From the IMG/VR virus record IMGVR_UViG_2541047712_000002: a stretch of DNA of 64,000 nt; one strand, given 5' to 3'. A program made the position numbers and the translations under genes. This DNA comes from a virus. Its lineage: Duplodnaviria; Heunggongvirae; Uroviricota; Caudoviricetes. The notes beneath the pieces are model-generated. The model was not told the origin of the DNA. It did not search any database and saw nothing but the letters and a program-made list of their open reading frames with translations. Shown one piece after another: positions 3,529 through 60,055 of this stretch; position 1 is the first letter of the stretch, and every line of letters starts with the position of its first letter.

Positions 3529-3603
3529 CAATCACCTTCAAAATAAGTAGATGATTACTTATCTTTCTGTGAGAATACTTTCATCTGTTAGCTAGGAGTT
3601 GGT

Positions 3604-4386
3604 ATGAAAGACGAAATTCAGAAATTAGCCTGCGACATCATTGATAAAACTGGTTTAGAAATCAGCGAGAGCAATCGGCTAGACATCATTGAAAAAGCCG
3701 TAAAAACAGCAATGGATCATATCGCCACTCGTTTGGTCGAGATCCCGCTACCGGGGCTACCTTATCTGAAGGTTAAGTTACACGTATGGGGTGAACCTTC
3801 TTGTGCACGGCGTTCTGCATTAGTTGTTTTTATTAGCAAAGAAAACCCGATCAGTCTTAAAGTGCAGGTTGGGGCATGGATGGATGGCAAAGTGATCTAC
3901 ACAAATACCGTTTTTTGTGCGTCAAATGACAGTATTATTGAAGAGGCTATTCAAGAATCACTTCTAACTATGCATAGCTTATTTTTGCTGGAAGACAAGC
4001 AAAACTACGAAGAGTACTTACGGTCGATAAAAGGTGAGAGAACATTGTCACTTAAAGCCGATTTCGTTACCCCGACAAACCTGTTGGAAGTCTTGCTTAA
4101 TAAAGGGGCTAATGATGCCGTAAATGTAATCAGAGAGAGTGAGTATGCGTCTCTTTGCGACATGTGCAAAAGCCAGTTGGATCTGGTGCATATCGTTATT
4201 GATGCTGGGAAGGCATGTGATGGCGTAATGGCGGAGTTTGCTGGGAAGATGGTCAGGATTGCTAACGAATTACCGATGATAGAGCAAGAGGCTAAATCAT
4301 ACGCCACCAATCATGTCACAGAGCTTCTTGTCCCCTATCGCTTAGAAAGCGATCAGCGCAAGATGATTAGCTGGGGAAGTTGGTAA
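3604..4386 (+). CDS. hypothetical protein
   Basis: 260-aa ORF in same-strand gene series; no motif recognised. Confidence 0.45.
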   Translation: MKDEIQKLACDIIDKTGLEISESNRLDIIEKAVKTAMDHIATRLVEIPLPGLPYLKVKLHVWGEPSCARRSALVVFISKENPISLKVQVGAWMDGKVIYTNTVFCASNDSIIEEAIQESLLTMHSLFLLEDKQNYEEYLRSIKGERTLSLKADFVTPTNLLEVLLNKGANDAVNVIRESEYASLCDMCKSQLDLVHIVIDAGKACDGVMAEFAGKMVRIANELPMIEQEAKSYATNHVTELLVPYRLESDQRKMISWGSW

Positions 4387-4441
4387 GCTCTCAGTGTGTC
4401 GTTTTTTACGCAAATAATGATAGGTAAGCACAAGATTATTT

Positions 4442-4924
4442 TTGGCGGTAATTGTGAAAGCTGATTTGTCAAAAATCCCCTCTATTTCAGGAAATAATGG
4501 TTATTCACTTCGTTGTGAGGAAGTAAAGATAAACGGTGAGTCGGCATATTGCAGCTACTCCGTTTGCCAGCACACCATTCTTGCCTTCAAAGAAAACCGT
4601 CTTCCTCGAACTTCATTCCAGTCGTGCGCAACCGCTATCAAAGCAGGCAAATGCAAGGCGTTAAAAATGATGGTTGAAGAGATTCGTAAAGGAGAATCTC
4701 TGTATTTCGAAGATATGACCGCGCTCATTAAGGAGGTTGAAGAACGGAATAAACAAGCCAGAACTTTAAAACGAAAACGTGACAGTGTAACGATTAATAG
4801 CATGGTTAAGAAGAGCACCACATCACAAACAGCGATCACTGACGTGTATGCGGCGTTGCTTGAAGAAACAACAAAAGAAACACATGAGCAAATCGATCAA
4901 CATATGGAGGTAAAACAACAATGA
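4442..4924 (+). CDS. hypothetical protein (start uncertain, non-ATG in ORF track)
   Basis: 160-aa ORF; stop overlaps ligase start. Confidence 0.3.
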   Translation: MAVIVKADLSKIPSISGNNGYSLRCEEVKINGESAYCSYSVCQHTILAFKENRLPRTSFQSCATAIKAGKCKALKMMVEEIRKGESLYFEDMTALIKEVEERNKQARTLKRKRDSVTINSMVKKSTTSQTAITDVYAALLEETTKETHEQIDQHMEVKQQ

Positions 4925-57590: not shown

Positions 57591-58205
57591 ATGTTCGGGA
57601 TGTCAATTACTCAATCAGATGGAAGTTTGTGGATGAGTCCAGAATTTACTCCGCAAAATCTTATTAATAAAGGGACAATGTCTACATCTAAAGGTTCTGT
57701 TTTTCAAACATCAATCCCATCAAACAAATCATGTTTTTTTTTCATAAAAAGCAGTAATAAGGCGAACATGATGTTTATTCATGAGCATAGTAACGGATAC
57801 AATGCTCTCAGATTGCATCAGGTAAATGGTAGCCCCGGAACAATAACAGTTTATGCTTTTTCTGATATGGTGTTACCACATTCTGGCTATGGCATTGCCA
57901 TGTATAACAGCGCAGGCGCAATGGTGTATCACGGTGAGATGATGCCCCTTGATGCGAAACTTATCACTATTTCTGACCCTCAATTTACAATAGATATGGG
58001 GTATCCATGTGCGGTAATGCCTGCTATGGTTGGAGTATATAACTATAGACGAACCGATTACGACAGACCTGTCTATGTAACAATGACAGGTGCAACTGGA
58101 AACCAAGTATATAACGGTCAATGGTATTCCGGTAATGTCACATGGGATATTAAGAAGATTTATACAAACAAAATTCTGGTGATAAATACCTCCAAGTATG
58201 ATTAG
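57591..58205 (+). CDS. hypothetical protein (AT-rich)
   Basis: about 204 aa from ATG 57591 after the preceding stop; low GC. Confidence 0.4.
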   Translation: MFGMSITQSDGSLWMSPEFTPQNLINKGTMSTSKGSVFQTSIPSNKSCFFFIKSSNKANMMFIHEHSNGYNALRLHQVNGSPGTITVYAFSDMVLPHSGYGIAMYNSAGAMVYHGEMMPLDAKLITISDPQFTIDMGYPCAVMPAMVGVYNYRRTDYDRPVYVTMTGATGNQVYNGQWYSGNVTWDIKKIYTNKILVINTSKYD

Positions 58206-58308
58206 CCAATGCCTTTATTTGAAGGATTGCCTGTTTATTTCTATTTAGTACCTTTTCATTTTTGAAATAATTGCACCATTAAACAAATCACTTCTTAATG
58301 GTGCAATT

Positions 58309-59994
58309 ATGAATACAGCCCTTTCCATCATCGACGATGCCAACTCAAACACTGCTATCGACTATCGGCAGGAAATGAACGTCATCCACGAAATTGTGGC
58401 CGAGTGCGAGAAAGAGATCGCCTTCATGTATCAGGTTCACGACTTCGTTTATGGCGACGAACGCCACAACATGATTAATCGCCTGCTGAGACTAAACCAT
58501 CGACCAGATGAAGATCGCTCGCGTTTAAATCGAGGTTGGTTGGATAAAGTCGATCTGGAATGGGTGAAACAGAATATTTGGGCCGAGTACTGGAGGAAGG
58601 TCACGGACATGACTAACGTTTTGCTGATCATGCCAGCTTCCCGTCGAGATGAGTGGCGCGAGCAGTTTATAGAGGGCAAACAGGAAGTCATCAAAACTGA
58701 CAGAACCGGCTACCAGATGAAGGTTAAAGAGTTCGTTGGTGTACCGGAGTTCAAAGCAGAAACGGTCATACCCACGATGCTTAATTTGCTGAATGACAGG
58801 CACAAATATCTCTCTGAGCGCGTGTATGGCTTGTTTAAGGCGCTGAGTCCTGCGCACAAGACAAATAAGACAAACGGTTTCAGCGAGCGTCTGATAATCG
58901 CTGACTGCATTTCTGATTTCTGGCGGGACAGCGTTAGCGTGAACTATCGCAAAGAGGACTACATCGACGATCTGCGTGTCTTGCTTCATTTCTTCGCGCA
59001 CAAAGAATTTATTACCATCAACCGCACTGCTGAGGTGCTATCAGCTGCGTATCGGGCAAACGACTGCCAGACCGGTGACTGGATGAACGTCGATGGAAAT
59101 CTGATGCGCGTGAAGATGTTCAAGAACGGCAACGTTCACTTTGAAATACATCCTGACGTGGCCTGGAAGTTGAATGAGGTGCTGGCTTACAGTATGCCTG
59201 CTGCAATTCCCGCGCCATGCCGAACTGCGCCAAAAACACGGGCACCAAAGCAGTTCGGGTTAATCCAGAAGACGATCTCCGTGCCGGTTCGCACTGCGCT
59301 TCGTGACGGGCGATTGAGCAAAGACAAAGGCGTATGGTACTTCTCTGATTCAGCTCTCCAGAAGTCGCAGGTGGAAGAGCTTGAGCGCACACTGAGCTTC
59401 ATTGGCGGCGTGCAGGAGAAAAAGCACTGGCAGTTCCCGTATGAGATCGGCCATACGCTAAATACGATTGTGGCTACCGGATTAATACCGGATACAAAAT
59501 CACACCAGTTCTACCCTACCCCACGCTTGATTGCTGAGTACGTTGCCAGAGCCACTGAATTGAAGTCTGGTGAGAAGCTGCTGGAGCCTCAAGCCGGACG
59601 TGGGGATCTTCTGGCCTATATCAACGCCGATCTGGAAGATGTTACCTGCATAGAAATCGCACCTCTCTTCGCTGATATCCTGCGCGGAAAAGGGTATACG
59701 AACACGATTTGCTGCGACTTCATAAAGTGGTCTGAGGACAACGTAGGTTATCAGTTCGACAAAATCGTTATGAACCCGCCGTACTCGCTTGGTCGTCATA
59801 GAGAGCACACGCTGGCTGCGCTGGGGCATCTGAAAGTCGGCGGGCGTCTTGTAGCAGTATTGCCGGGCACTGCGCCAATACTGGACTGGATGACGATGGA
59901 TAATTACGTTTATGCCAGAGGGAAGTCGTTTACCAACGAGTTTGAAGACACAGGGATCACAGTCAGCGTATACGTTTTCAAACGCGTTAAATGA
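58309..59994 (+). CDS. DNA methyltransferase (NPPY type) with large N-terminal domain of unknown function
   Basis: C-terminal motif I LLEPQAGRGDLL and motif IV VMNPPY; about 390 N-terminal residues unassigned. Confidence 0.6.
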   Translation: MNTALSIIDDANSNTAIDYRQEMNVIHEIVAECEKEIAFMYQVHDFVYGDERHNMINRLLRLNHRPDEDRSRLNRGWLDKVDLEWVKQNIWAEYWRKVTDMTNVLLIMPASRRDEWREQFIEGKQEVIKTDRTGYQMKVKEFVGVPEFKAETVIPTMLNLLNDRHKYLSERVYGLFKALSPAHKTNKTNGFSERLIIADCISDFWRDSVSVNYRKEDYIDDLRVLLHFFAHKEFITINRTAEVLSAAYRANDCQTGDWMNVDGNLMRVKMFKNGNVHFEIHPDVAWKLNEVLAYSMPAAIPAPCRTAPKTRAPKQFGLIQKTISVPVRTALRDGRLSKDKGVWYFSDSALQKSQVEELERTLSFIGGVQEKKHWQFPYEIGHTLNTIVATGLIPDTKSHQFYPTPRLIAEYVARATELKSGEKLLEPQAGRGDLLAYINADLEDVTCIEIAPLFADILRGKGYTNTICCDFIKWSEDNVGYQFDKIVMNPPYSLGRHREHTLAALGHLKVGGRLVAVLPGTAPILDWMTMDNYVYARGKSFTNEFEDTGITVSVYVFKRVK

Positions 59995-60055
59995 TAGGTA
60001 AATACTTACCTAATTTGTGTAAGAATGTAGTTACTAAACGATAAGAGAAAAACAC

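Follow-up and report, generated by a model that had tools for sequence, protein, structure and literature searches.

Results

A recurrent palindrome in the gaps of a phage-plasmid

We analysed a window of 64,000 nucleotides (nt) from the IMG/VR virus record IMGVR_UViG_2541047712_000002, in which a short palindrome recurs between the genes. Nearly all genes of the window lie on the plus strand, and its sequence indicates that it is the replication, recombination and nucleotide-metabolism half of a phage-plasmid of the SSU5/pHCM2 type. A 12-kb piece of the window is 98.5% identical to Escherichia phage Cyrano (OV696614) and about 80% identical to Salmonella phage SSU5 and to Klebsiella phage-plasmids. 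The whole window is about 98% identical to Cyrano and aligns to its positions 31.2–92.0 kb, the differences being one deletion and one replaced accessory block (window 7.9–16.3 kb) that is specific to the window and essentially free of the palindrome. SSU5 is a lytic isolate that forms plaques. E. coli LF82 carries Cyrano as its plasmid prophage pLF82 (PMC9928086).

Motif discovery on the intergenic DNA recovered the palindrome without any prior: the top intergenic 8-mer was ATAAGTAA/TTACTTAT, with 12 intergenic copies versus 1 copy in the coding DNA, which is five times larger. A first expectation-maximisation run was too permissive (about 39 of 50 segments were assigned), and half-site scans and an iterated palindromic matrix, built on the three related genomes Cyrano, SSU5 and Klebsiella pJN2-26, were used instead. 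The resulting consensus, ATAAGTAAGTACTTACTTAT, carries about 20 bits. The site is a 20-mer of fixed length (8+4+8) whose centre, GTAC, is informative, and it consists of two inverted half-sites of 10 base pairs (bp), ATAAGTAAGT. A few sites (47978 and 20636; sites are named by their first position) are 16-mer versions without the central 4 bp, and these look like 4-bp deletions inside the TAAG repeat. The variable spacing of 2–6 nt given in the first-pass annotation does not, therefore, describe the motif, and the 16-mer ATARGT-N4-ACYTAT was also dropped as the basic unit, since the sites of SSU5 and pJN2-26 are nearly all 20-mers with an informative centre.

The matrix detected 19 sites of at least 12 bits in the window, where 100 Markov shuffles predict 0.30, and 22 of at least 10 bits, where they predict 0.78 (Table 1). 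When the shuffling was confined to the AT-richer intergenic DNA, 12 fully intergenic sites of at least 17 bits were found versus 0.007 expected. A half-site scan (ATARGTAA, spacer 0–6, at most 3 mismatches) gave 39 hits at about 18 loci versus 5.5 ± 1.9 in simulations; all hits save three were intergenic, with a spacer of 4 or 0 in nearly all. The nine examples given in the first-pass annotation are all real, with scores from 12.6 to 25.9 bits, but the one at 17979–17992 is a weaker variant that retains the core only, and the one at 28036–28070 is a larger palindrome enclosing the site 28045–28064.

With regard to placement, all 15 sites of at least 17 bits are intergenic or touch only a stop or start codon, and in all the palindrome occupies about 15–19 gaps; a single site of at least 12 bits (19305) is intragenic. 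It should be underlined that the depletion from coding DNA is partly automatic, because the motif holds stop codons in two of the three frames on each strand. Nor is the motif a feature of unrelated genomes, as judged by the exact consensus ATARGTAAGTACTTACYTAT, of which the species-representative genomes (596 Gb) contain 13 copies, all isolated singletons and at about chance level.

The two arms vary independently

In a logo built without imposed symmetry, the left half of the site holds 11.6 bits and the right half 10.2 bits. Across 71 distinct sites the arms form 406 Watson-Crick pairs, compared to 407 ± 6 under independence, and the four combinations at the variable purine/pyrimidine position are about equally frequent (AT 15, AC 15, GC 15 and GT 13). 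The same independence of the arms was seen in the site set of an Acinetobacter relative (see below). The arms are thus under no selection for pairing, which argues for a protein site made of two half-sites. As judged from these patterns, the palindrome is a binding site for a dimer or a higher oligomer and not an RNA or cruciform hairpin.

A hairpin could act as a weak terminator, an RNase processing site, an mRNA stabiliser or a translational operator, and the location of the sites between cistrons, often at stop codons or shortly 5' of ribosome-binding sites, would suit such roles; both the 16- and the 20-nt versions would form hairpins. A possible partner is an RNA-binding protein of the FljA family, which includes the translational repressor of Salmonella phase-1 flagellin. 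Outside the window, Cyrano encodes a full-length member of this family (PF03614, E=1e-80) at 100780–101301 (L004 10780–11301). However, this gene has no site upstream and no detectable homologue in the motif-bearing Acinetobacter element, and the stems are A/U-rich and lack a T-run, in agreement with the earlier remark that the motif is not a canonical terminator. Together with the pairing test, on which we rejected the RNA hairpin, this makes such a function extremely improbable.

Conservation of the sites among related elements

At matching gene boundaries, 29 loci were counted in Cyrano and 30 in SSU5, and about 30 are found also in pJN2-26. Beyond the window the sites continue into the virion and lysis blocks, where they lie between the TerL and portal genes, behind the capsid gene, behind tail genes and ahead of the holin gene. 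Identity among orthologues is 85% within the sites as compared to 66% in the 40-nt flanks; the arms are kept while the centre and the flanks change. The Yersinia pestis plasmid pMT1 contains 16 sites, all within its phage-derived parts, and sites of this type occur also in pCAV1015-111 (helicase identity 68%). In an Acinetobacter phage-plasmid with a helicase of 37% identity we found about 35–45 sites of a related, distinct palindrome, ATTAGTAAGCGCTTACTAAT, and these occupy the same kinds of place, such as 16 nt before the portal gene, or after the capsid gene and ahead of a terminator. The maintenance genes, that is, repA with its iterons, parA and its neighbour, and the toxin-antitoxin pairs, are without a site.

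Position of the sites relative to promoters and terminators

No information was found in the flanks beyond ±3 nt of the palindrome (about 0 bits), and hence there is no -10 or -35 at a fixed distance from it, which argues against a promoter element of the sigma or activator type. Predicted sigma-70 promoters do overlap the sites, in differing registers: the site lies in the spacer/-10 region of four of them (28039–28067, 32825–32853, 34779–34806 and 43265–43293), over the -35 of one (10006–10034), and over the expected start of two (52785–52813 and the predicted promoter of a helix-turn-helix (HTH) gene, 18021–17994). Moreover, four strong sites of the window (109, 34784, 47978 and 52812) are 1–11 nt away from a start codon, and Cyrano site 2020 ends 10 nt 5' of the portal gene. 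The first-pass annotation had offered two explanations, an operator for one dimeric regulator or a shared promoter element. The former agrees with the information content of the half-sites, their independence and the conservation of the sites; the latter, if understood as an element in fixed register, does not agree with the uninformative flanks, the varying registers and the sites next to start codons. The variable placement fits repressor operators or roadblocks better, and would be hard to reconcile with activation.

A case for activation comes from sites 3543, 7065, 38584 and 59994, each of which is followed at 7–9 nt by a conserved -10-like hexamer (at site 109 such a hexamer precedes the site), so that the palindrome would span about -40 to -21 in promoters that have no good -35. 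Here the palindrome could be the site of an activator, or a positive lytic promoter element standing in for the missing -35, and silence of the site-linked genes in the lysogen (see below) is predicted by activation as well. The T4 MotA box (at -30) and the inverted repeat of the late Lpa promoters of P1 are likewise phage-specific elements beside a -10 without a -35, but they are found at one fixed distance from the -10, unlike the sites studied here. In addition, a start downstream of the sites that adjoin start codons or terminators could not serve the next gene, site 32831 is flanked by a near-consensus -35 and -10 that make an activator unnecessary, and no candidate activator was identified. 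Activation is, in our judgement, unlikely.

Some sites are directly followed by a terminator hairpin. Such a module is present at 43268–43315 in the window, at 5443, 9018, 15529 and 22448 in Cyrano, and at 83294 in the Acinetobacter plasmid, and the hairpins are kept through compensatory changes (window 43294–43315; Cyrano 5443, 9018 and 15529). The predicted promoter at 43265–43293 would start in the 5' arm of the hairpin, and its own transcripts would thereby escape the terminator that stops read-through from upstream.

Expression of site-linked genes in LF82

Expression values were taken from the published LF82 RNA-seq table (PMC9928086), which covers the lysogen in LB medium and in macrophages. 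CYRAN_45, which encodes the HTH protein, reached 96 in the lysogen as compared to a background of 9.8 (about tenfold), while the genes behind strong sites had a median of 8.8 in LB, which is background level. Of 23 genes with an upstream site of at least 14 bits, 21 were below the authors' cut-off in the lysogen; the two exceptions were CYRAN_40, which had been assigned by a strand error, and CYRAN_81, whose 15.8-bit site lies 160 nt upstream. The site-free maintenance and toxin-antitoxin genes were expressed. A repressor candidate that is on and site-linked genes that are silent are what is expected for a repressor, and the same pattern also fits the activator model.

Under macrophage stress, expression stepped up by 2.4 to 3.7 log2 units across the site-bearing gaps before CYRAN_12, 34, 56 and 60. 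CYRAN_34, 3' of site 3543, rose by 2.4 log2 units over its upstream neighbour, and CYRAN_60–62, 3' of site 34784, showed a step of 3.65 log2 units. CYRAN_56, 3' of site 32831, went from the detection floor to 7.7 log2 units, with the upstream RecA-like gene staying low. Two of these four gaps contain the best predicted promoters, and the data are suggestive of inducible promoters at those sites.

The HTH protein as candidate regulator

Five proteins, counting each member of a pair, have homologues in every motif-bearing lineage compared, including Acinetobacter: an XRE-type HTH protein (absent from SSU5), two proteins with a ParB_N domain, an 88-aa protein and TerS. Of these we consider the HTH protein encoded at 17561–17947 most likely to be the binder. 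It had also been named first in the first-pass annotation, and it remains the best candidate on account of its predicted XRE-type fold, its expression in the lysogen, the conserved variant site at its own predicted promoter, the sites upstream of its homologues, and a recognition helix that differs where the motif does. The match to Pfam HTH_19 (E=8e-4) is below the curated cut-off; a profile search of the PDB gave matches to XRE-type domains, and the AlphaFold model shows a five-helix HTH fold with a predicted local distance difference test score of 84–90 over residues 11–80. Foldseek matches were weak (best E 0.018, none at or below 0.001) and nearly all of XRE type, including C.BclI, HigA, C.AhdI, SinR and the 434 repressor.

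The gene has a predicted promoter on the minus strand (TTTACA-16-TAATAT, with the -10 at 17994–17999), of which variant site 17976 covers the expected start; pJN2-26 and IMG/VR relatives retain both this site and the ATTACA next to it. At this promoter the P0032 variant plasmid has a stronger site (24.9 bits). The homologue of pCAV1015-111 is preceded by a tandem pair of strong sites together with weaker ones, and that of Acinetobacter has two sites upstream. In PLSDB, at least 865 plasmids belonging to these groups of phage-plasmids carry a homologue of the HTH protein. The recognition helix, NNLSLIKSGK, is nearly invariant across the SSU5 group, including 80 IMG/VR loci around HTH homologues, and the motif is constant there; in Acinetobacter both the helix (NQNMVSFIVRGK) and the motif differ from those of the SSU5 group. 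SSU5 itself has lost the HTH gene through a deletion between a tRNA gene and CobT, yet keeps every site. Since SSU5 is lytic, the HTH protein, if it is the binder, must be dispensable for lytic growth, as expected of a repressor.

Several other proteins were rejected as binder. The motif-bearing pJN2-26 has no counterpart of the HicB/AlpA-like product of 26497–27060, which had been the second candidate of the first-pass annotation. For the FljA-like, Cra-like, CYRAN_37 and S24 proteins, no homologue was detected in the Acinetobacter element. A sigma-70-family gene of the latter (NZ_CP096711, 17690–18355, between the CobS-like and PolIII-alpha genes) was set aside, as it has no homologue in the SSU5 group.

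A different picture would be that another conserved protein binds the sites, for a purpose other than promoter control or additional to it: the ParB_N proteins, by clamp loading as for KorB or ParB or at a dispersed centromere comparable to the SopB sites of N15, the 88-aa protein whose gene immediately precedes that of TerS, or a factor for DNA compaction or packaging. The homologues of these proteins occur in SSU5 too, which would account for the full set of sites in SSU5 despite its missing HTH gene, and in Cyrano, SSU5, pJN2-26 and Acinetobacter the first ParB_N gene is directly preceded by a site. In both ParB_N proteins (CYRAN_119 and CYRAN_120), however, Pfam finds the ParB_N domain only and no DNA-binding HTH, and in the lysogen the normalized counts of the two genes in LB, 5.0 and 9.5, are close to background. 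The partition genes used for maintenance, parA and its neighbour, are located elsewhere, and neither the near-complete exclusion from coding DNA nor the overlap with core promoters would be expected of centromere or packaging sites. pMT1 keeps both the HTH protein and the ParB_N proteins and so does not separate the two candidates. We regard a binder of this kind as rather unlikely overall; the ParB_N proteins are nevertheless a real alternative, and they or the 88-aa protein may bind the sites during lytic growth.

Alternatively, the sites could be bound by a host protein, or be short repeats for recombination at module boundaries, with no role for the element's own regulators. The core GTAAGTACTTAC resembles the SlmA-binding sequence, GTGAGTACTCAC, and repeats at gene boundaries could promote the exchange of modules, in the manner of the promoter/stem-loop cassettes of T4-type phages. 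Against this, the best-conserved positions are in the outer arms and not in the 12-bp core, the motif changes between Enterobacteriaceae and Acinetobacter in step with the element and not in a way linked to a common host factor, outside these elements exact copies occur only singly, and the accessory block is not bounded by sites. Such a role of the sites is very unlikely.

Around the HTH gene, which we keep as the preferred candidate, some further features were observed. The window contains two LexA-box-like sequences (CTGT-N8-ACAG with TA-rich flanks; 16419–16434 and 61293–61308), one of them 5' of the integrase gene, which converges tail-to-tail on the HTH gene, and the other 5' of a gene for an S24 peptidase (UmuD/LexA-like). 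Both the integrase and the S24-peptidase gene rose about 25-fold in macrophages. These boxes may be an SOS input to induction, for example by convergent transcription into the repressor gene. Divergent from the HTH gene lies the small gene hyp46 (18199–18411), whose Cyrano orthologue rose from 4.3 to 10.8 log2 units in macrophages; with the toxin-antitoxin pairs set aside, no phage gene changed more. The gene hyp46 is a candidate for a Cro-like or antirepressor gene.

Other repeated sequences

Site 53475 forms the centre of a long palindrome, GCCTGCTTCTGTATAT...ATATACGGAAGCAGGC, of which a half copy is present at window positions 1–23. In Cyrano the copies are at about 31.2 kb, at 78.1 kb and across the record ends, and counterparts with motif-like centres and the same flanks were seen in SSU5 (all three) and pJN2-26 (one). 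The long palindrome may be a different element from the operator-like sites, and such palindromes could be bidirectional terminators at module boundaries, origins or recombination sites.

Repeat arrays (..ACAGTGGATA.. and ..TATAGTGG..) are located at 35583–36012 and 37123–37728, on either side of repA (36018–37073, minus strand), and are probably the iterons of the plasmid origin. The second most enriched intergenic 8-mer was AGTGGATA, with 12 intergenic and 0 coding copies. The most over-represented 8-mer of all was the Chi sequence GCTGGTGG, which occurs 25 times in Cyrano and 31 times in SSU5, roughly tenfold the expectation; its copies in the window are at 5745, 5930, 44283, 50949 and 61467, plus 7 on the other strand.

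Table 1. Palindromic sites and associated features of the window. Scores are from the palindromic 20-mer matrix; promoters and -10-like hexamers are consensus matches.
Feature	Position	Strand	Score (bits)	Context and conservation
Site ATAAGTAAGTAACTACCTAC	109–128		22.8	11 nt 5' of hyp31 start; kept in Cyrano, SSU5 and pJN2-26; conserved -10-like TATCAT/TATGAT about 15 nt upstream
Site ATAAGTAGATGATTACTTAT	3543–3562		19.5	Gap primase gene/hyp34; conserved -10-like TGTGAGAAT/TGTAAGAAT downstream
Half-site-like ATAGGTAAGCACAAGATTAT	4420–4439		11.5	2 nt 5' of hyp35; GTAAGTACAAGATTAT kept in relatives
Site ATAAGTATTTACTTACTTAT	7065–7084		25.6	Past hyp39, before tRNA cluster; -10-like TATAAGAT at +9; site and -10 position retained in SSU5 and pJN2-26 (TATGAT)
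tRNA-Asn, tRNA-Tyr, tRNA-Ser cluster	7832–8446			3' of site 7065 and its -10-like TATAAGAT
Site ATAGGTAATGACTCACTTAT	9999–10018		17.1	Divergent gap orf445 (-)/orf61 glutaredoxin (+); overlapped by predicted promoter ATGACT-17-TATAGT
XRE/Cro-CI-type HTH protein, 128 aa	17561–17947	-		Candidate binder; identical to CYRAN_45, 'putative repressor'
Weaker variant, core GGTAAGTGCTTACC (17979–17992)	17976–17995		12.6	Adjoins predicted -10 of HTH gene; putative autoregulatory operator
Decayed site within CobT	19305–19324		12.0	Only recurrent intragenic site; 19–26-bit sites at this CobT position in relatives (pJN2-26 91932, SSU5 43661)
Site, good 16-mer ATAAGTAACTACTTAC	20636–20655		18.9	Between CobT and CobS-like gene; conserved TATATTTATATAAGA downstream; kept in SSU5 and pJN2-26
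Site ATAAGTAAGTACTGATCTAT	28045–28064		24.3	UvsY/gp32-like SSB gene gap, within larger palindrome; in spacer of predicted promoter TAGATA-17-TATCAT
Site, 16-mer ATAGGTACTTACTTAT	32831–32850		22.5	Spacer and -10 of predicted promoter TTGAAA-17-TATTAT (10/12 consensus matches; conserved in Cyrano and SSU5); terminator 32795–32815 just upstream
Site ATAAGTTAGTATCTACCTAT	34784–34803		20.8	1 nt 5' of annotated hyp60 start; overlapped by predicted promoter TTTATA-16-TATCAT
Site ATAGGTATATACTTACTTAT	38584–38603		25.5	5' of SbcD; conserved -10-like TATATT/CATAAT downstream; kept though flanks diverge between relatives
Site ATAGGTAAGTGCTTATCTAT	43268–43287		25.9	RuvC/NrdA gap; terminator hairpin directly 3'; predicted promoter TTGATA-17-TAACAT; site and terminator arrangement kept in SSU5 and pJN2-26
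Weaker site, 16-mer GTAGGTAGTTATCTAT	47837–47856		13.4	MazG stop codon; conserved TATATT 5 nt downstream; orthologues GTAAGTATTCACTTAT and GTAAGTACTAACTTAT
Site, perfect 16-mer ATAAGTAATTACTTAT (47978–47993)	47978–47997		22.0	15 nt (20-nt scoring window: 11 nt) 5' of ThyX start; orthologues in SSU5 and pJN2-26 are 20-mers
Site, perfect 20-mer ATAGGTAATCACTTACCTAT	52812–52831		25.5	11 nt 5' of Dam methylase start; predicted TG-extended promoter would start transcription within site; orthologues retain arms, central 4 bp changed
Motif-like centre of long palindrome	53475–53494		18.1	Palindrome of about 53 bp (53461–53513), three copies per genome
Medium site ATAGATAAGTACAAACTATT	53852–53871		15.8	hyp80 stop codon; SSU5 orthologue 19.8 bits
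Site GTAAGTAAGTGTTTACCTAT	55025–55044		23.6	Overlaps RNase H stop codon; SSU5 and pJN2-26 orthologues 27.8 bits
Site ATAGGTAAATACTTACCTAA	59994–60013		25.2	DUF4942 stop codon; conserved; conserved -10-like TGTAAGAAT downstream, 42 nt 5' of Ead/Ea22 gene

Discussion

The symmetry, the independent arms and the conservation of the palindrome make it highly probable that it is an operator to which a protein binds, and the effect of this binding is probably repression. As a whole, the statement that the palindrome is the operator of one dimeric repressor encoded by the phage-plasmid itself, and that this repressor is most likely the XRE-type HTH protein, is one that we favour with some reserve. In the mechanism that we propose, the HTH protein would be the prophage (immunity) repressor. 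In the plasmid-prophage state it would occupy sites that overlap the -35, the spacer/-10 region or the start of lytic sigma-70 promoters, and thereby silence the lytic units, that is, the genes for replication, recombination, nucleotide metabolism, lysis and the virion. Sites located inside operons, at stop codons, or before terminators or ribosome-binding sites would probably be roadblocks or aids to cooperative binding. The maintenance genes, having no site, would escape repression, and the weaker variant over the repressor's own start would give negative autoregulation.

A number of observations weigh against this reading. Consensus promoter matches are no more frequent in the window than in shuffled sequence, and the AT-rich ends of the motif (TAT plus CAT) account for part of the overlap with promoters; simple promoter occlusion does not account for the sites immediately ahead of terminators. 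The group-wise expression tests were not significant overall (P=0.25, 0.32 and 0.14), because most phage genes are silent with or without a site. With regard to the binder, the site at the HTH gene's own promoter reaches only 12.6 bits in the window, the co-variation of helix and motif rests on essentially one deep split, and the P0032 helix variant displayed no clear shift of the motif in the six sites examined. Every lineage with the motif also retains the ParB_N pair, the 88-aa putative DNA-binding protein and TerS, and the retention of all sites in SSU5 also fits a different binder that SSU5 still encodes.

In its logic the proposed system appears closest to the C1 operators of P1 and the stoperators of L5-type phages. 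The C1 repressor of P1 has 22 operators across the genome and silences separate lytic operons (PMC8546580). Both P1 and the element studied here are plasmid prophages in which one repressor would act on many dispersed operators, but the P1 operators are asymmetric 17-mers (ATTGCTCTAATAAATTT) and those described here symmetric 20-mers, and by its description the small XRE-type HTH candidate is set apart from the C1-type protein. Moreover, the virion and lysis genes of P1 are under indirect control through Lpa, whereas in the present elements sites are found within the virion and lysis blocks as well. The Cluster A mycobacteriophages (L5, Bxb1) have 20–30 stoperators per genome, located in short intergenic spaces and mostly not at promoters, and motif and repressor co-vary (PMC6550527). 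The 29–30 loci per genome found here, including gaps within operons such as TerL/portal and the one after the capsid gene, resemble this arrangement, and some Cluster A members are extrachromosomal prophages too. In contrast, stoperators are 13–14 bp long, have no dyad, are bound by a monomer without cooperativity and are oriented with transcription, while the sites here have a dyad and no orientation.

Other systems share single features. The Cro/CI repressors of lambdoid phages, 434 and P22 and the C-proteins of restriction-modification systems have the five-helix HTH fold predicted here, a palindromic operator read by a dimer, and an operator at the repressor's own promoter; these systems, however, have 3–6 operators clustered in one immunity region as compared to about 30 dispersed over 100 kb, and their half-sites are unlike the long half-site (10 bp) with informative centre and internal 4-bp repeat (TAAG TAAG) of the present motif. 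In the IncP plasmid RK2, short palindromic operators (OA and OB) for KorA and KorB are scattered over the plasmid at varying promoter positions and coordinate many operons. They have no sequence similarity to the sites described here, and KorB is a ParB-family CTPase with an HTH, whereas the ParB_N proteins of these elements show no HTH in Pfam and their genes are near background in the lysogen.

It is possible, and we put it forward tentatively, that the roughly 30 symmetric operators at the same gene boundaries, from the SSU5, pHCM2 and pMT1 types of the Enterobacteriaceae to Acinetobacter, are one ancient genome-wide silencing network of a small XRE-type repressor. Such a network would combine promoter occlusion, stoperator-like roadblocks and site-plus-terminator modules in which transcription starts inside the hairpin, and it would also set superinfection immunity and incompatibility among these phage-plasmids, which are common in clinical settings. 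In a more radical version, the sites would load clamps of the ParB_N-domain proteins for long-range silencing similar to that by KorB.

Full-text literature searches gave no description of the motif sequence or of lysis-lysogeny regulation in SSU5-type phages. Since P1 and the L5-type phages already provide cases of a single repressor acting on many dispersed operators, the system would be a new example and not a new principle. Phage-plasmids of the SSU5/pHCM2 type are common in E. coli, Salmonella (pHCM2 of S. Typhi), Klebsiella, Enterobacter and Yersinia pestis (pMT1), and they are able to carry resistance genes. With a defined 20-bp operator and a named candidate repressor, the regulon becomes predictable in any relative, and the two together suggest which elements should be mutually immune. 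The absence of the candidate repressor would, in addition, provide a simple explanation for the lytic behaviour of SSU5.

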